Of a stretch of 64,000 bases of DNA, positions 50,746-64,000 are shown in pieces (the stretch's first letter is position 1; every line of letters starts with the position of its first letter). This DNA is from an uncultured Muribaculaceae bacterium (GTDB lineage Bacteria > Pseudomonadota > Alphaproteobacteria > Rs-D84). A program made the translations under genes and the position numbers. Under the pieces are notes generated by a model. It was not told the DNA's origin, did not search any database, and saw nothing but the letters and a program-made list of their open reading frames with translations. Location: NCBI GenBank assembly GCA_965231035.1, contig OZ246409.1, forward strand, positions 338,075 to 402,074, in the 5' to 3' direction.

Positions 50746-50821
50746 TGGTGGCTGGGAACGGAATCGAACCGCTGACACAGGGATTTTCAGTCCCTTGCTC
50801 TACCAACTGAGCTACCCAGCC
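50746..50821 (-). tRNA. tRNA-Phe (anticodon GAA)
   Basis: Reverse complement: GGCTGGG acceptor, GTAGCTCAGTTGGTAGAGC D-arm, anticodon loop CTGAAAA, GGTTCGATTCC T-arm, CCA encoded. Confidence 0.9.
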
Positions 50822-53963: not shown

Positions 53964-54239
53964 ATGAACATTTCTGAAATACAAAATTCTGACGTACAAC
54001 CTGCACTTTCTAGTGTGACTATTTTTTTGATACTACTTCTTTCTAGCGGGGCTTTTACAATTAAAAAATCCCAGAAAAAACCTTTATATACCAGATTAAA
54101 CCCAGATTGGGTGTTTTATGGTTTTGCTAACATCAATAAATTTTACTTAACAGCGCCAGAGTACAAGCAAAATATGGGAAACTGTTATAAATCGCTTAAT
54201 AAATTTGTACCAAAATTAAAATTTCGAGAGAGATGTTAA
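53964..54239 (+). CDS. small membrane hypothetical protein
   Basis: 91 aa with one TM. Confidence 0.3.
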   Translation: MNISEIQNSDVQPALSSVTIFLILLLSSGAFTIKKSQKKPLYTRLNPDWVFYGFANINKFYLTAPEYKQNMGNCYKSLNKFVPKLKFRERC

Positions 54240-54305
54240 AAAAAATTATTAAAAAATTAACTGTGTAAAATCAGTTCTGATAATTAGTTAAAATATGGAT
54301 ATATA

Positions 54306-55115
54306 ATGATTGATAAAAAAAATGATTTACAGGCCGAAGGAGAAAATTTCCTTAAATGGGATTTTTTTAAAAACCCTTCTGTTATTTCTGATTTAATAAA
54401 CCCTGTTCAAAAAACAGTAAAAAAATTAATAAAAAAATCAAAAAAAGATCTTAGGATTATCGACCTTGGTACAGGTACAGGAATTATTATAAAAAATATA
54501 AAACAAAAAATAGAATCTCAAGAAAATAATAAGTTATATAACTTAATTTTTTATGGGGTTGATTGCTTAGATGAGCTTATTAAAAAAAATCAAGAGGAAG
54601 CACCTGATATAAAATGGATATGTTCTGATAATAAAAATTTACCATTTCGTGACCAATCTTTTGATATTGTAGTTATGCGAAACACTCTTCATTATGAAGA
54701 AAACTATGAAAATCAAAAAAAAGTTATATGTGAAGCATATAGAATATTAAAATATTCCGGATATATTATAGATTTTCAATCTTGTTTCCCTACCCTTTTG
54801 GAGACAAACCTGATTCGGAATATATATAGTGTACTGCCAAAAGCTATAAAAATGCAGACAATTTCAGAATTTAAAACATTACATAAAACAATCTTCGGTA
54901 ATGTGAAATTATTATCAAATCCAAATTCTAGAAATTTATTAGTTAGTAAAGATTTATTGACTAAAAGATATATGACAAAATTAGAGCAGTTGGAAATTAT
55001 ACGTAACAAGATTTTAGATATTCCAGAAAAAAATAGGCCAAACTTCCATATTTCTGAAAAAGATTTTTGGTTCACAATCCCGCAAAGAATAGTTAAATGT
55101 CAAAAAATAAAATAA
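54306..55115 (+). CDS. class I SAM-dependent methyltransferase (very AT-rich)
   Basis: IIDLGTGTGII motif I; DIVVMRNTLHY motif. Confidence 0.6.
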   Translation: MIDKKNDLQAEGENFLKWDFFKNPSVISDLINPVQKTVKKLIKKSKKDLRIIDLGTGTGIIIKNIKQKIESQENNKLYNLIFYGVDCLDELIKKNQEEAPDIKWICSDNKNLPFRDQSFDIVVMRNTLHYEENYENQKKVICEAYRILKYSGYIIDFQSCFPTLLETNLIRNIYSVLPKAIKMQTISEFKTLHKTIFGNVKLLSNPNSRNLLVSKDLLTKRYMTKLEQLEIIRNKILDIPEKNRPNFHISEKDFWFTIPQRIVKCQKIK

Positions 55116-58582: not shown

Positions 58583-58658
58583 GGGTGCGTAGCTCAGTTG
58601 GTAGAGCAACTGACTCTTAATCAGTGGGTCTGGGGTTCGAATCCCCACGCGCCCACCA
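58583..58658 (+). tRNA. tRNA-Lys (anticodon CTT)
   Basis: GGGTGCG acceptor, TAGCTCAGTTGGTAGAGC D-arm, anticodon loop CTCTTAA, GGTTCGAATCC T-arm, ACCA. Confidence 0.9.
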
Positions 58659-58851: not shown

Positions 58852-59421
58852 TTAATTATTAACAAATTCAGATTTTAATTTTGAGAATACCATTGTATCT
58901 CCAATTCTTCCATCTGGATAGGGAAAGTCCTGTCTTAAAATACCATCAAGGTTATAACCCAATCTTTTAGGTATATTTTGACTGCTTATATTGTTCGTGT
59001 CACAATGGATTTCAATTTTGTTCCAACCATCAATTTCGAACACTGCTTTTTCTAAAATTTTCACAGCATTTGTCATTATACCATTACCGCCAAACTTTTT
59101 ATCCAACCAGTATCCAATCTCAACTTTTCTTTTACTTTCTTCTCGTTTTACAAAGCCTATTGATCCTATAACTTTATTATCTTTAAATATTAAGTATGTC
59201 CACTCTTTGTTATAAACGTGTGATAGACCATCATATTCATCTGTTACAGAATTTGTTCTTGCAACCCAAGGTAGCCAATATCCAAGATATTCACGATTTC
59301 TTTCTACAATTTCAAAAACTTCTTTTGCAAGTTCAAAAGTTGGTTTAATACGACGTAATTCTATACCGTATTCATCTAATGTTTCTGGGAAATCTTTCAT
59401 AGTTTTACCTTTTTGTATCAA
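58852..59421 (-). CDS. GNAT-family N-acetyltransferase (RimL/RimJ-like)
   Basis: GNAT fold pattern (IGSIGFVKRE...GYWLDKKFGGNGIMT). Confidence 0.6.
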   Translation of the reverse strand: MIQKGKTMKDFPETLDEYGIELRRIKPTFELAKEVFEIVERNREYLGYWLPWVARTNSVTDEYDGLSHVYNKEWTYLIFKDNKVIGSIGFVKREESKRKVEIGYWLDKKFGGNGIMTNAVKILEKAVFEIDGWNKIEIHCDTNNISSQNIPKRLGYNLDGILRQDFPYPDGRIGDTMVFSKLKSEFVNN

Positions 59422-59432
59422 GTATAAAACTA

Positions 59433-61058
59433 TTATTTATAAAATTCAATCTCTTGCTCACTGAACTTTTCGTACTTACTTGCTATATCAAACAATGTTT
59501 GCAGGTTTATGGTGGCTGGTGCGTTGCCAGACATAATCGTGTTTATAATCTTTGGTGACATATAACAAAGATTTAAATACTTATAAACCGTTCGATGGTC
59601 GCGACCCATTTTGGTGGCAAGTTTTCGGACGGACATTCCATTCTCAATTTCACGTTTATACTTCCAGGCGTATGCCAATGCTCGTACCAGTGTGTTATTA
59701 TTTTCTGATTTGGTCATTATTAATTTTTCACCACATTGGTGTTTATAGATAATTGAACTGGTACTGGCGATACTTATTTCTGTTTCAATCACAATATATT
59801 TTTCATCATCTGTTAAATAGCAATTTTCCATTTGATTATTAAATGCATTCATATAATTTTTATCTGTAAATATATCCAAATACTTCAAATCATCAGAGTT
59901 TATAAAAATCGTGATTTTATGGTCTTGATAAATAATCTTATCAATCATTGGGTTTATAATTGCCTCCGTATATTTAATCTGCTTAAACATCAGACGCTTT
60001 TCAGATGGCAGAAAGTTCATATCAGAATCTAAAAACTGCCGCACAGTGTCAGATACTATTTTATCAATATGTCCCATTGGAATAGAATGCTTGCCAGCGC
60101 GATAATATTTGTATTGTTTTATACCTTTACGCCCAGATGAATTCTTGAACACCGTACCCGAAGTTGTTTGTATTTTATTATTTAATAAAGATGGTGCTCT
60201 TTTACAAACTGCATCACCACGATTATTATTATTTTTTAATTTTTCTTGAACATTATTAAATAATTCTATATCAAGTATTTCAGGATGTTCGCCTTCAAAA
60301 ATATCACCACTGGATTTATTTGGTAATTTACCAAGAAATATAGGATTGGTCAGAAACCTTTGTAAAATTGATACGCCCATAATGTTGCCACCAATAGTTT
60401 TTCCTTTTTCTGTAATCCATTTTTTACCATAAATCCCTTGTTCAATTAAACGTAATCTGCAATCAGACAAAGATGATGATTCCAGATAGGTTTCAAATAT
60501 TTTCCGCACTATTGGAATCTCTGACTCATTCGGTACCAGCTTGTGAAACTTTATATCGTACCCCATTGGTGGCTTACCACCGACCCACATCCCCTTGGAC
60601 TTGGTTGCGCGTATTTTATCGCGTATACGTTCGCCAGCAACCTCACGTTCAAACTCTGCAAACGACAGTAACATATTCAGCGTTAATTTACCCATGGCGC
60701 TATTGGTGTCAAAACTTTGTGTGATACTGACAAGATTACAATTATGTTTATCAAACTCTTTCATCATACTTTTAAAGTCAAAAATACTGCGCGACAATCG
60801 GTCAATTTTATAAACCAGAACGCAGTCAATTCTGCCACTACGAATATCAGTCAGCATTTCTTGTAAAGCGGGTCGCACCATTGTTCCACCAGAAATCGCG
60901 GCATCACTGTAAGTTTTAATATATTCCCAACCTTGGAACGTCTGGGACATAATGTATGCCTTAGCGGCTTGTTCCTGGTTGTCCAATGAATTAAATTCCT
61001 GATCCAGGCCATGCTCGCTGGACTTACGCACATAAATTGCACATCTTACATTTGCCAT
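59433..61058 (-). CDS. large serine recombinase (resolvase/invertase N-domain plus recombinase domain plus C-terminal HTH)
   Basis: AIYVRKSSE nucleophile region, IDRLSRS motif, about 540 aa. Confidence 0.85.
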   Translation of the reverse strand: MANVRCAIYVRKSSEHGLDQEFNSLDNQEQAAKAYIMSQTFQGWEYIKTYSDAAISGGTMVRPALQEMLTDIRSGRIDCVLVYKIDRLSRSIFDFKSMMKEFDKHNCNLVSITQSFDTNSAMGKLTLNMLLSFAEFEREVAGERIRDKIRATKSKGMWVGGKPPMGYDIKFHKLVPNESEIPIVRKIFETYLESSSLSDCRLRLIEQGIYGKKWITEKGKTIGGNIMGVSILQRFLTNPIFLGKLPNKSSGDIFEGEHPEILDIELFNNVQEKLKNNNNRGDAVCKRAPSLLNNKIQTTSGTVFKNSSGRKGIKQYKYYRAGKHSIPMGHIDKIVSDTVRQFLDSDMNFLPSEKRLMFKQIKYTEAIINPMIDKIIYQDHKITIFINSDDLKYLDIFTDKNYMNAFNNQMENCYLTDDEKYIVIETEISIASTSSIIYKHQCGEKLIMTKSENNNTLVRALAYAWKYKREIENGMSVRKLATKMGRDHRTVYKYLNLCYMSPKIINTIMSGNAPATINLQTLFDIASKYEKFSEQEIEFYK

Positions 61059-61173
61059 ATTTATCCTTTTGATTATGCCCATTTACGCTCTGTTGGGACG
61101 CGAAGTCAAGTCGTTAAAACACTTGATTTATAAGGTTTTGTAAGCATTAGTATGTATGTAAAAGAGGCAAGAT

Positions 61174-61497
61174 ATGGATAAAAAGCAACAGCAATATATG
61201 GCACAATGTAAAGTTACAGGTTATAAGATAGAACAAAAGCATTTAAGTAAATTGAATAAGTATTTAAAAGACCCAGATGGTTGTATCGAGCGTTCAATTA
61301 AAACAAAATATTATATAAAACCAGGCACAAGAATTACGAAAAAATACAAAGGAAAAGAATACATTGTGACAGTGATTTCAGAAAACAAATTTATGTATAA
61401 AATGGATACTTTTGAAACACTATCAGCAGTAGCTGTCGCAATAACCGGCCATAAAGTTTCCGGTTATGAATTCTTTGGTTTTTATAATAAGCATTAA
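61174..61497 (+). CDS. DUF2924-like small protein commonly paired with serine recombinases
   Basis: C-terminal TLSAVAVAITGHKVSGYEFFGF matches the DUF2924 signature. Confidence 0.5.
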   Translation: MDKKQQQYMAQCKVTGYKIEQKHLSKLNKYLKDPDGCIERSIKTKYYIKPGTRITKKYKGKEYIVTVISENKFMYKMDTFETLSAVAVAITGHKVSGYEFFGFYNKH

Positions 61498-61564
61498 AGT
61501 AGCTGAAACATATTGAATTTATAAATATTTTAAAGTAAAATGTGCCAAGAAATAAGGATGTTTT

Positions 61565-61933
61565 ATGAGCGCAGAAAATATAAATTTTACAGGCAATGAT
61601 AAATTTTTAGAATTTATAGTAGAAATTTGGCGCCTTCCAAAATTATTCAAAAAGCTTATTGCAAAACAAGATTATAGCGAGCAACAAAAATACGTAAGTC
61701 AATTCAACTGGTTTAATAAAAAAGCTCTCGATTTTTTACAAAGTGAAGGACTCTCTTTTCCGGAATATGAAGATATGCCTTTTGATGTGGGTATGCCACT
61801 AACACCAATCAACATAGGCGATTTTAGTTCGGAAGATGAGTTGGTAATTGAACAAATACTGGAACCTGTTATTATGAAAGGTGACAAAATTATCAAAGCT
61901 GGCACAGCAATTCTAAAAAAGGCAGAGAAATGA
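61565..61933 (+). CDS. small GrpE-like protein (putative nucleotide-exchange partner of the downstream Hsp70)
   Basis: C-terminal ...FDVGMPL...LEPVIMKGDKIIKAGTAILKK resembles the GrpE beta-domain pattern (MQKGY.L.GR.IR.A.V.V.K). ORF stop overlaps the Hsp70 start. Confidence 0.35.
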   Translation: MSAENINFTGNDKFLEFIVEIWRLPKLFKKLIAKQDYSEQQKYVSQFNWFNKKALDFLQSEGLSFPEYEDMPFDVGMPLTPINIGDFSSEDELVIEQILEPVIMKGDKIIKAGTAILKKAEK

Positions 61934-64000
61934 AAAATTTTATCGGAATAGATTTAGGAACAACAAACAGTGCGATATGTTCGTATGACGGTGAACACGT
62001 GCGTATTTACAAAAGCCCTGATCAGACCGATGTGACACCATCGGCAATTTACATTGATAAGCGTGGTAATAAGTATGTTGGAAAGCGTGCTTATGATTAT
62101 ATACCAAACGATCCTGATAACGTGGCTGTAAGGTTCAAAAGGCTGATGGGGACAAACACCCCAATAGAAATACCGAACCTAGGCAAGACAATGCTGCCAG
62201 AAGAATGCTCTGCCGAAATCTTAAAAGTTTTATTTAATTATCTGCCAGATGAACTACAAAAAGATCCCGATATAGGCACGATTATAACCACCCCAGCGGC
62301 GTTCAATCAGATGCAGAAAGAGGCAACCCTGCAAGCAGCAAACATGGCTGGTATCGGGAAAGTTGCGCTTATGCAAGAACCTGTAGCGGCAATCATGAGC
62401 GTTATGAAAACGCGCCCTGAAGATGGGATTTTTCTAGTTTATGACTTAGGCGGCGGCACATTGGATGTCGCTGTAGCGGAAAGTATCAATGGTCATGTAA
62501 ATTTACAGAGTCATGGCGGTATAGCAATGTGTGGCGGGCGTGATTTGGATCGTCTATTGGTGGAAAATGTTGTTTATCCATGGCTTAGATCGAACTTTGA
62601 TTTATCTTCTGAATTTTGGAATGATCCGAAATATAAATCGTTGGTACGTTTGGTTGCATATGCAACAGAACGCGCAAAAATAGATTTGTCTGCAAAAGAG
62701 GACGCAACAATCAGTCTATCAGAAAATGAGGTGCGTATAAAAGATGATAAGAATGCTGATATATATTTGGACATCCCTGTAGATCGTAAAACTTATAACG
62801 GACTGATTTCAGAACGAATAGATGAAACAATCAAAGCGGTTCGTGAAACCTTAGATAAGGCAGGATTGAAACCCGATGATGTAGTGCGGATTGTTTTTGT
62901 AGGTGGCCCGACTTGCTATAAACCGTTACGTGACAAAGTGTCTTCCGAACTAGGGATTCCAGCAAACACAGACGTAAACCCTATGACTGCAGTTGCTGAA
63001 GGTGCAGCTATATTTGCAGAATCAATAGAATGGTCTTCACAGGATCGGTCGCGCAAAAACATGCGTGGCTCTGTCGAAGCACAAGGCGTTGTAAATGTAA
63101 AATTTGATTTTATCGCAAGAACTCCAGATGTAAAAACTAAGTTGGTAGTCAAACTGCCGGAAAAGACAAAAGGTAAATTTGAATTTCAGATTGATTCCAC
63201 CGACTCTGGGTGGTCATCGGGTAAATTATCATTGAAAGACGGGGTGACTATAGACTTAGTGCTGTCGAAGTTTGGCGAAAACAATTTTAAGGCATTTTTA
63301 TTTAACGAAATCGGCGAAAGTATTGCACTTGATCCGAATAAAATTGTGATCACACGAACTGCTGCAACAATCGACTCTATTCCGGCATCACATTCTGTCG
63401 GTATTGAAGTGTTGGATAAACTTGGCGGAACACCGATGTTGGATTATATGGTACGTTCTGGCGATACTTTGCCAAAACGCGGCAAGATGCAATTCAAGGC
63501 GGCTAACACATTGAAATCTGGTGATACAGGCTCATTGAATTTCAAAATATGGGAAGGTGACATTGTGTCACCGATACTGGACAATCGTCTTGTTGGGGTT
63601 ATGAAAATCACAGGAAAAGATTTTGACGATGGGGTTATCCCTGCAGGTGCTGACATAGACCTATCATATGAAATGTCTGACGATGGAAACATACGTCTTG
63701 AAATAACGATACCAAGTATTCGTGGCTCGTTCAACTCTGGTCGAAACTTCTATTCGCGCCAAGAAGGACAACGTGACTATTCTGAAGCACCAGAGGCAAT
63801 TAAAGAAGACGCAGAGTCTACAAAATTACGTGCTGATGAAATGGCGACACATATAAGCGATCCCGAATTAGATAAGACAAGACAAAAACTAGATGAGGCA
63901 TCATCGATATCCTCAGACGAAGTAGATCCAGAAAAGACAAAAGAAGCCGAAGAAAAAGTATTCCAAGCAAAAAAAGATCTTGCCGTTATTCGCAAAAAAC
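61930..64000 (+). CDS. stand-alone Hsp70-family ATPase (partial, runs off window end)
   Basis: IGIDLGTTNSAI phosphate-1 motif, DLGGGTLDV phosphate-2, GGPTCYKP adenosine motif. Not in the ORF track because no stop occurs in the window. Confidence 0.85.
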   Translation, partial: MKNFIGIDLGTTNSAICSYDGEHVRIYKSPDQTDVTPSAIYIDKRGNKYVGKRAYDYIPNDPDNVAVRFKRLMGTNTPIEIPNLGKTMLPEECSAEILKVLFNYLPDELQKDPDIGTIITTPAAFNQMQKEATLQAANMAGIGKVALMQEPVAAIMSVMKTRPEDGIFLVYDLGGGTLDVAVAESINGHVNLQSHGGIAMCGGRDLDRLLVENVVYPWLRSNFDLSSEFWNDPKYKSLVRLVAYATERAKIDLSAKEDATISLSENEVRIKDDKNADIYLDIPVDRKTYNGLISERIDETIKAVRETLDKAGLKPDDVVRIVFVGGPTCYKPLRDKVSSELGIPANTDVNPMTAVAEGAAIFAESIEWSSQDRSRKNMRGSVEAQGVVNVKFDFIARTPDVKTKLVVKLPEKTKGKFEFQIDSTDSGWSSGKLSLKDGVTIDLVLSKFGENNFKAFLFNEIGESIALDPNKIVITRTAATIDSIPASHSVGIEVLDKLGGTPMLDYMVRSGDTLPKRGKMQFKAANTLKSGDTGSLNFKIWEGDIVSPILDNRLVGVMKITGKDFDDGVIPAGADIDLSYEMSDDGNIRLEITIPSIRGSFNSGRNFYSRQEGQRDYSEAPEAIKEDAESTKLRADEMATHISDPELDKTRQKLDEASSISSDEVDPEKTKEAEEKVFQAKKDLAVIRKK

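Follow-up and report, generated by a model that had tools for sequence, protein, structure and literature searches.

A Small Gene Overlapping an Hsp70 Gene

The DNA analyzed here (the window) is a stretch of 64,000 nucleotides (nt) of contig OZ246409.1 from assembly GCA_965231035.1, which was deposited as an uncultured Muribaculaceae bacterium and is placed by GTDB in the alphaproteobacterial lineage Rs-D84. At its right end lie two overlapping plus-strand genes: a 122-amino-acid (aa) open reading frame (ORF) with an ATG start, which was read from the window at 61565..61933 and encodes the GrpE-like small protein that is the subject of this report, and the gene for a specialized, DnaK-derived Hsp70 (61930..64000). 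A Shine-Dalgarno-like AAGGA was read from the sequence 6 nt before the ATG of the small ORF (61554..61558, plus strand); upstream of it, at 61513-61541, lies a sigma-70-like site, of a kind whose count is not above chance. The TGA stop of the small ORF (61931-61933) and the ATG of the Hsp70 gene (61930-61932) share 4 nt, and the resulting ATGA on the plus strand (61930..61933) is a start/stop overlap of the translational-coupling type. The original prediction, drawn from the letters of this window, had proposed the small protein as a dedicated nucleotide-exchange factor for an accessory Hsp70, and both of the features that it described, a translation terminating ...LEPVIMKGDKIIKAGTAILKKAEK and a 4-nt overlap with the Hsp70 start codon, are present.

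A word search recovered seven close homologs of the 122-aa protein, which are 57-82% identical when the whole alignment is counted. A profile built from these seven sequences was searched among 1.84 billion proteins and retrieved 581 representatives of clusters at 50% identity with E <= 1e-3, 290 of them at E <= 1e-10; because of this retrieval, the small ORF is taken as a real gene, and a genuinely conserved one. Stand-alone members of the family are mostly 113-130 aa long and carry no sensor domain. The small proteins of the loci examined are labeled "hypothetical protein" throughout in RefSeq, and no curated family model covers the GrpE-like family, which comprises at least 581 clusters at 50% identity. 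A phage-encoded co-chaperone of cultured phages was considered separately and ruled out, as a tblastn search with the small protein gave no match in 50,697 phage genomes.

The linkage between the two genes is strict. An Hsp70 gene of ~825-840 codons lies directly downstream of the small gene in all 15 loci examined, across which the small protein shares 26-100% identity with that of the window, and the arrangement persists at 26-32%. The ATGA overlap recurs in 10 of these loci, and the remaining junctions range from -1 to +18 nt. The loci were taken from metagenomes and genomes (L001, L004, L005, L006/L007, L008, L009, L010, L016, L017/L018, and L019; L004 is a Muribaculaceae metagenome-assembled genome (MAG), L005 a Puniceicoccales MAG, and L006/L007 the complete genome CP134604) and from plasmids, namely Polaromonas naphthalenivorans CJ2 pPNAP01, Aeromonas caviae pKAM471_1 (L011), Vibrio rumoiensis plasmid 2 (L015), Aminobacter sp. 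MSH1 pAM01, and Sinorhizobium meliloti pSymA. In L011, L016, and L019, the Hsp70 gene was called in fragments, probably through frameshifts; the frameshifted gene of L019 retains the same ATGA junction, and in L008 just the first 44 Hsp70 codons lie on the contig. A canonical grpE was not found in the window or in the loci retrieved. The original prediction had depended on conservation of the small ORF beside the Hsp70 gene in related islands, and this is what the 15 loci display. It had also pictured a self-contained, two-protein module, a description that no longer holds: the pair belongs to a three- to four-gene system, which is described below.

Likeness to GrpE in Predicted Structure

The AlphaFold2 model of the small protein, built on a 101-sequence alignment, reached a pLDDT of 92.4 and a pTM of 0.80. 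It consists of two helices (residues 9-32 and 37-60) followed by a C-terminal beta-domain (residues ~72-119), so that the head fold of GrpE, a helical hairpin of the four-helix-bundle type plus a C-terminal beta-domain, is present in the model. When the model was compared with the whole PDB using Foldseek, ranks 1-12 were all GrpE chains, and beyond them the probability dropped below 0.11; GrpE was also the sole fold family recovered by two independent structure-comparison programs. The GrpE-like fold on which the original prediction hinged is hence predicted with high confidence. GrpE additionally possesses a long N-terminal paired helix, or stalk, which is regarded as absent from the small protein because its first helix starts after only 8 residues and the match begins at residue 83 of E. 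coli GrpE. Judging from the model, "headpiece-only" GrpE is the most fitting description: the protein has the two bundle helices and the beta-domain but no N-terminal stalk.

Variants of this architecture were found within the family. Several members contain tandem GrpE-like domains, two or three per chain (P0009, at L016 8001-9053; P0013; P0021; and P0050), which would be expected if the working unit were dimeric, as in GrpE, and which provide a hint of a dimer. In other cases, the GrpE-like domain forms the C-terminal part of a larger protein, joined to an EVE domain (PF01878) in L017/L018 (L017 1696-2925) or to an HSDR_N domain (PF04313) in L010 (8001-9590); the L017 operon additionally holds GYF_2-domain proteins. 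Domains of the EVE and HSDR_N types are frequent in restriction and defense proteins, and these fusions suggest that the sensing of nucleic acids or their modification is coupled to the Hsp70 cycle.

Likeness to GrpE in Sequence

The original prediction had likened the C-terminus to the beta-domain of GrpE and had suggested a profile comparison, which was performed here with hhalign. Aligned to a 7-sequence GrpE profile, the 101-sequence family gave a collinear match of query residues 19-95 to residues 83-173 of E. coli GrpE (P 2.3e-4). Three of the profile sequences were enterobacterial, among them E. albertii P0162, which shares 97% identity with E. coli GrpE. The other four, B. subtilis, M. 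tuberculosis, and T. thermophilus GrpE and human GRPEL1, were validated only by their matches to PF01025 (98-178 bits). Against enterobacterial GrpE alone, the C-terminal part aligned, with residues 43-120 on 119-195 (E 0.035). The pattern of the C-terminus is borne out by these profiles, which place ...GDKIIKAGTAILKKA onto ...NGRTIRAAMVTVAKA of E. coli GrpE, i.e., the beta-hairpin. In the hhalign alignment, the terminal hairpin GDKIIKAGTAIL sits on GrpE NGRTIRAAMVTV, so that K108, K111, and L117 correspond to R183, R186, and V192; L31-I32-x3-D36 falls on the LLPxxD motif of GrpE (L95-L96-x3-D100) and F73-D74 on L149-D150. GrpE P151 and H154 have no counterpart, and the corresponding region is occupied by V75/G76 and P78.

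The family members were also scanned individually. Pfam GrpE was the family matched by the most members (8 of 101), all below threshold, with a best E of 0.0018; member P0127, for example, scored 12.7 bits on the GrpE model (PF01025) versus a cutoff of 25.8. With a GrpE hidden Markov model (HMM), 20 of the 101 members matched at P <= 1e-3 and 51 at P <= 1e-2, compared with 0-1 and 0-5 in five shuffled sets and 2 and 7 for reversed sequences at the same cutoffs. The 12 strongest matches listed for this HMM all fall in its C-terminal half (positions ~93-188 of 191). Taken as sequence evidence, the signal appears weak but real, and it lies below the level that would prove homology by sequence alone.

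The Partner Hsp70

The Hsp70 gene runs off the window after codon 690, and the identical metagenomic contig L001 gives the full 831 codons. Pfam HSP70 matches residues 5-364 only, i.e., the nucleotide-binding domain (NBD), with an E of 2e-53. The protein is laid out as an intact ATPase NBD, a beta-rich insertion of ~110 residues between NBD and linker, a region resembling the beta-part of the substrate-binding domain (SBD), and a C-terminal extension in the form of a helical tail of ~250 residues. Six family members were aligned to E. coli DnaK; the equivalents of D8, K70, E171, D194, G196-198, T199, and D201 are kept in all six, and DnaK residues ~75-106 are missing.

This Hsp70 retains the "GrpE signature" segment (subdomain IIB, DnaK 290-295). 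HscA has lost that segment by deletion and HscC does not have it, and GrpE is not believed to serve either protein (PMC8215388). There is no deletion at DnaK 288-300; four extra residues stand just before this region, and the segment itself is divergent in sequence. The nearest solved NBD is that of the G. kaustophilus DnaK in the GrpE complex 4ANI (1e-50); other DnaKs and mortalin come next (~1e-36 to 1e-39), ahead of BiP/Hsc70 (~1e-29). By sequence, then, the closest solved relatives of this Hsp70 are GrpE clients.

Other Proteins of the Module

In the loci examined, the module consists of the GrpE-like protein, the 830-aa Hsp70, a conserved partner of ~370-600 aa, and often a Cdc48/VAT-like AAA ATPase. 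In L001, the Hsp70 gene is followed by genes for a 473-aa AAA ATPase, a 583-aa protein with no Pfam match, and a DUF6804 protein. The AAA ATPase (L001 5813-7234) contains just one AAA domain, of the classical type, nearest to VAT/Cdc48 D1/D2 (E 3.5e-52) and preceded by an N-terminal domain of ~230 residues that matches no family. It is present in L001, L004, L005, L006, L011, L012, L015, L016, and L017 and missing from L009 and L010. Through its AAA domain only (residues 224-447), it matches the PADLOC models for IetA (E 4e-27) and TRIP13. The small protein, which was also scanned as a single sequence, the Hsp70, and the third conserved protein gave no significant match to PADLOC-DB v2 models.

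The third protein (583 aa in L001, 370-600 aa elsewhere) is encoded just beyond the window end, at L001 7236-8987. Its N-terminus is near-invariant (NPFYILGAtPRDNRqkIxELAeEkSLxLDxxxxxxARxxLTxPRKRLxAEIAWLPG). The NCBI annotation of the same MAG starts this protein (P0278) 52 codons late (531 aa vs 583 aa) and thereby drops its most conserved part, the NPFYILGAtPRDNRqkI...PRKRLxAEIAWLPG motif shared by ~100 homologs. The motif resembles helices I-IV of a J-domain but has no HPD, the consensus there being ...EEkSLxLD.... An hhalign comparison with J-domains was weak (P 3.4e-4, probability 38%), none of 74 members matched Pfam DnaJ (PF00226), and no PDB sequence match was obtained; the label "J-like" is a lead only. 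In the model of the third protein (P0279), an N-terminus of four short helices is followed by a helix-hairpin-helix-like motif (WLPGxGPKR), a long helical region, two PH-like beta-domains, and a hydrophobic helix at the C-terminus, which is probably transmembrane. In other subfamilies, the C-terminus is a soluble ...DNIHVLEAAIRMFWKRGG... tail.

Mobile Elements and Defense Genes Around the Module

To the left of the module, the window carries a tRNA-Lys(CTT) gene (58583..58658, plus strand; ARAGORN), and to its right, at 58852-61497, genes for a GNAT acetyltransferase (minus strand), a serine recombinase (minus strand), and a DUF2924 protein (plus strand) precede the small gene. The tRNA is a possible island boundary. 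The large serine recombinase (549 aa; 59433..61082, minus strand) was identified as an ORF, and the identical gene of L001 matches Pfam Resolvase and Recombinase. The DUF2924 protein (107 aa; 61174..61497, plus strand; Pfam E 1.4e-16) accompanies the recombinase and is part of the mobile element rather than of the chaperone module. In L004, from Muribaculaceae, a 64-77%-identical operon is preceded by a DUF2924-like ORF and by an ORF of 546 aa, which is assigned to the recombinase by its size; this likeness implies that the element moved as a whole between phyla. In L005, an ORF of 120 aa occupies a similar position ahead of the module, and the DUF2924 gene is absent from the other loci. Elsewhere in the window, a tRNA-Phe(GAA) gene on the minus strand (50746-50821) is unrelated to the chaperone module, and the kilobase at 54000-54999 has 26% G+C versus 31-42% in the adjoining kilobases.

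Mobility is also evident at other loci. On the Aeromonas caviae plasmid pKAM471_1, an IncP plasmid that also bears mer genes, a Tn7-like transposon (tnsABCDE) carries the module (L011 888-14841) as its first cargo, downstream of tnsE. The Hsp70 of this copy is annotated in two pieces of 545 and 200 aa, probably reflecting a frameshift or pseudogene. In place of the fourth gene, or as an extension of it, there is a gene for a protein with a peptidoglycan-binding domain, and L015 and L006 have a similar gene after the operon. Defense genes are repeated neighbors: type I Zorya in Polaromonas (ZorA 8e-212, ZorC 1e-223), a type IIG restriction-methylase (9e-147) and the Gabija gene GajB (6e-241) in Sinorhizobium, GajA- and GajB-like genes in Aminobacter, and a type III CRISPR-Cas cluster in L019. 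The module is patchily distributed across phyla and horizontally transferred.

Proposed Mechanism and Alternative Readings

We read the 122-aa protein as the dedicated cofactor of the downstream Hsp70, with a GrpE fold that is divergent and has no stalk, and assign this reading a probability of roughly 60%. The small protein and the Hsp70 would be translated together, and the former would dimerize through its helical hairpin. One protomer would then bind lobes IB/IIB of the ADP-bound cognate NBD by its beta-domain and bundle, as GrpE does. Such binding could open the NBD cleft, speed the release of adenosine diphosphate (ADP), and reset the chaperone cycle. The pair would act inside the mobile three- to four-gene module, for which the neighborhoods and mobility suggest involvement in conflicts with mobile elements, phages among them.

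Several observations weigh against this reading. Even at E <= 1, neither the Pfam nor the NCBIfam model of GrpE matches the window protein, and when the family profiles (A1, A2) were searched against PDB sequences, no GrpE appeared at E <= 10, the top match being an unrelated "ATP-binding protein" (9c1m, E 0.017). The hhalign probability of the family against the GrpE profile is just 44%, and the family does not keep the histidine that is invariant in GrpE (E. coli H154). Compared with GrpE chains, the model gives TM-scores of ~0.45-0.53 and a high root-mean-square deviation; the likeness is therefore one of architecture and domains, not of rigid superposition. The long N-terminal stalk is missing. 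On the Hsp70 side, the NBD cleft of DnaK is held by K55-E267 and R56-E264 salt bridges and a V59-L257 hydrophobic patch; in this family, K55 is replaced by Y, R56 by D, and E264 by a non-acidic residue, E267 alone being kept. The loss of these salt bridges, which bear on the intrinsic rate of ADP release and hence on the need for an exchange factor, speaks against a DnaK-like dependence on exchange.

At the level of the system, the parts could alternatively make up a mobile stress-proteostasis kit (KJE plus unfoldase, for heat, metals, or aggregation) that has no role in defense and in which the small protein would remain an exchange factor. All the parts are chaperone-like (Hsp70, GrpE-like protein, Cdc48/VAT-like AAA), no protein except the AAA matches any PADLOC model, the Aeromonas copy lies near mer genes, and E. 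coli HscC with its dedicated J-domain protein DjlC (and probably DjlB) provides a precedent for a specialized stress Hsp70 (PMC8215388). Against this stand the repeated adjacency to type I Zorya, type IIG restriction-modification (RM), Gabija, and type III CRISPR-Cas genes, the domain fusions with EVE and HSDR_N, and the carriage by a Tn7-like element, where the module comes first among the cargo downstream of tnsE. The patchy spread of the module across phyla by horizontal transfer also argues otherwise. We regard a pure proteostasis kit as somewhat unlikely but as a serious alternative. A bolder proposal, which we put forward tentatively and would not yet bet on, makes the small protein the exchange-factor subunit of an undescribed, widespread, Hsp70-centered system against phages or mobile genetic elements. 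The components of such a system would be the stalk-less GrpE, the DnaK derivative of 830 aa, optionally a Cdc48-like AAA unfoldase, and a partner that has a degenerate N-terminus of J-like type and two PH-like domains and is probably anchored in the membrane. The chaperone cycle itself would be the immune mechanism, e.g., through recognition or unfolding of phage assemblies or release of a membrane effector, and nucleotide exchange would be its regulated, sensor-coupled step, as the fusions of EVE and HSDR_N domains with GrpE-like domains suggest.

At the level of the protein, the GrpE fold could serve a regulator rather than an exchange catalyst: a clamp, an inhibitor, or a sensor-coupling adaptor on the NBD. 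Such a protein might, for example, keep the Hsp70 inactive and free of nucleotide pending a signal, or it might link the chaperone to a sensor domain. The EVE (L017/L018) and HSDR_N (L010) fusions would fit signal coupling, the stalk by which GrpE couples exchange to substrate release is missing, and the DnaK-type salt bridges underlying GrpE dependence are not conserved. However, what is conserved coincides exactly with the portion of GrpE that touches the NBD and pries its cleft open, basic residues in the C-terminal hairpin fall on R183/R186 of GrpE, and most members are stand-alone proteins of ~115-130 aa with no sensor domain. The two functions are also compatible, as GrpE forms a stable complex with nucleotide-free DnaK. 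A purely regulatory role, the main rival for the small protein, is judged unlikely, and a dedicated exchange factor of the GrpE fold remains the preferred reading. That the likeness arose by chance or convergence in an unrelated helical-hairpin-plus-beta protein, such as a scaffold or antitoxin-like partner, is highly improbable: the missing curated-family match, the PDB sequence-profile searches that returned no GrpE, and the 8-16% identity to GrpE structures would permit it, but two structure-comparison methods place only GrpE on top with a clear gap to the rest, the sequence signal is ~20-fold over shuffles in the same register, the GrpE motifs align, and the gene is obligatorily linked to an Hsp70, which to our knowledge is the only client class of GrpE.

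Comparison With Known Systems

GrpE (PF01025) is the nucleotide-exchange factor of bacterial DnaK and of mitochondrial mortalin (structures 1DKG, 4ANI, 8GB3, and 9BLS). Its beta-domain wedges against lobes IB/IIB of the Hsp70 NBD, and its N-terminal paired helix acts as a thermosensor and substrate-release arm that contacts the interdomain linker and SBD of DnaK. In its predicted fold, the small protein shares the architecture of the GrpE head, two four-helix-bundle helices followed by a small beta-domain, and it has a similar basic C-terminal hairpin (G-x-(K/R)-x-I-(K/R)-x-(A/G)-x-V/I-x-V/L) and similar LLxxxD and (F/L)D motifs. GrpE is its best and only consistent structural match, and the small protein is encoded beside its Hsp70, again like GrpE. 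Unlike GrpE, it is ~70 residues shorter, lacks the N-terminal paired helix and the disordered N-terminal tail, scores below the Pfam and NCBIfam thresholds, and does not keep the GrpE-invariant His. Moreover, GrpE serves the housekeeping chaperone DnaK, whereas the small protein travels with a non-canonical, mobile Hsp70 of 830 aa. Because the curated threshold is failed and the stalk is missing, the small protein is filed as a divergent GrpE variant and not as a canonical GrpE.

Among specialized bacterial Hsp70s, HscC and HscA resemble the present one in being horizontally spread and in having dedicated partner proteins. HscA and HscC are 550-620 aa long and carry no GrpE signature, whereas this Hsp70 is longer (~830 aa), includes a beta-rich insertion, ends in a long helical tail, and retains the signature segment together with a strictly linked GrpE-like gene. 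DjlB and DjlC are membrane-anchored, and the third protein of the module likewise has a predicted C-terminal helix that appears sufficiently hydrophobic to cross a membrane. Both HscC, for which DjlB/DjlC are the partners, and the HscA/HscB pair are described as specialized systems with partners of their own, and HscC and many non-proteobacterial DnaKs have a deletion of residues 76-101 (Mayer 2021, PMC8215388), similar to the loss of ~75-106 in this Hsp70.

The nearest precedent for the recruitment of an Hsp70 and GrpE, with a J-domain-fused protein, into a predicted conflict system is provided by the GAP1-N2 GTPase systems, which contain gene sets for HSP70, GrpE, and a DnaJ fusion (Kaur, Burroughs, Iyer & Aravind 2020, PMC7159879). 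Their neighborhoods, mostly from actinobacteria and firmicutes, have GAP1-N2 GTPases and FNIII-repeat proteins as defining components, together with a recognizable GrpE (PMC7159879). No GTPase or FNIII Pfam family was found among the operon genes of L001, L006, L009, L010, L016, and L017 or of the annotated plasmid loci; here, the GrpE-like protein is truncated and unannotated, and the extra ATPase is a Cdc48-like AAA. Like the DnaK-ClpB bichaperone, the module combines in one operon an Hsp70 cycle (Hsp70, exchange factor, and possible J-like protein) with a ring-type AAA+ unfoldase candidate. The AAA differs from ClpB in being a single-domain classical AAA with a unique N-domain of ~230 aa, it is missing in L009 and L010, and its functional coupling to the Hsp70 is putative.

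Two further candidates were rejected. IetAS was ruled out despite the match of the operon's AAA ATPase to IetA profiles (E 4e-27), since the operon encodes no IetS-like protease and the likeness is confined to the generic AAA domain. The Hsp70-like CnuD proteins of CoCoNuT systems (PMC11090510) were likewise ruled out on account of their degenerate Walker motifs and McrBC homolog neighbors, neither of which is seen here.

Significance of the Module

Three types of Hsp70 have been described in bacteria, of which only DnaK uses GrpE, HscA and HscC being thought to do without an exchange factor (PMC8215388). Many other DnaK derivatives have been called unexplored "dark matter" (PMC13580251). No description of the present module was found in the literature searched, which is an absence from that library and not proof, and the Hsp70-centered mobile module is probably new. 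Its Hsp70 would represent a fourth type, large and mobile, accompanied by its own minimal GrpE. If the exchange activity that we infer is true, the small protein would be the smallest natural GrpE defined and would reveal which parts of GrpE suffice for exchange, apart from thermosensing and substrate release. With its recurrent placement by Zorya, Gabija, RM, and CRISPR genes and as Tn7 cargo, the module is a candidate chaperone-based immune system that can be tested directly. Cultured sources of the module are at hand in the plasmids of Polaromonas naphthalenivorans CJ2, Vibrio rumoiensis, Aeromonas caviae, and Sinorhizobium.

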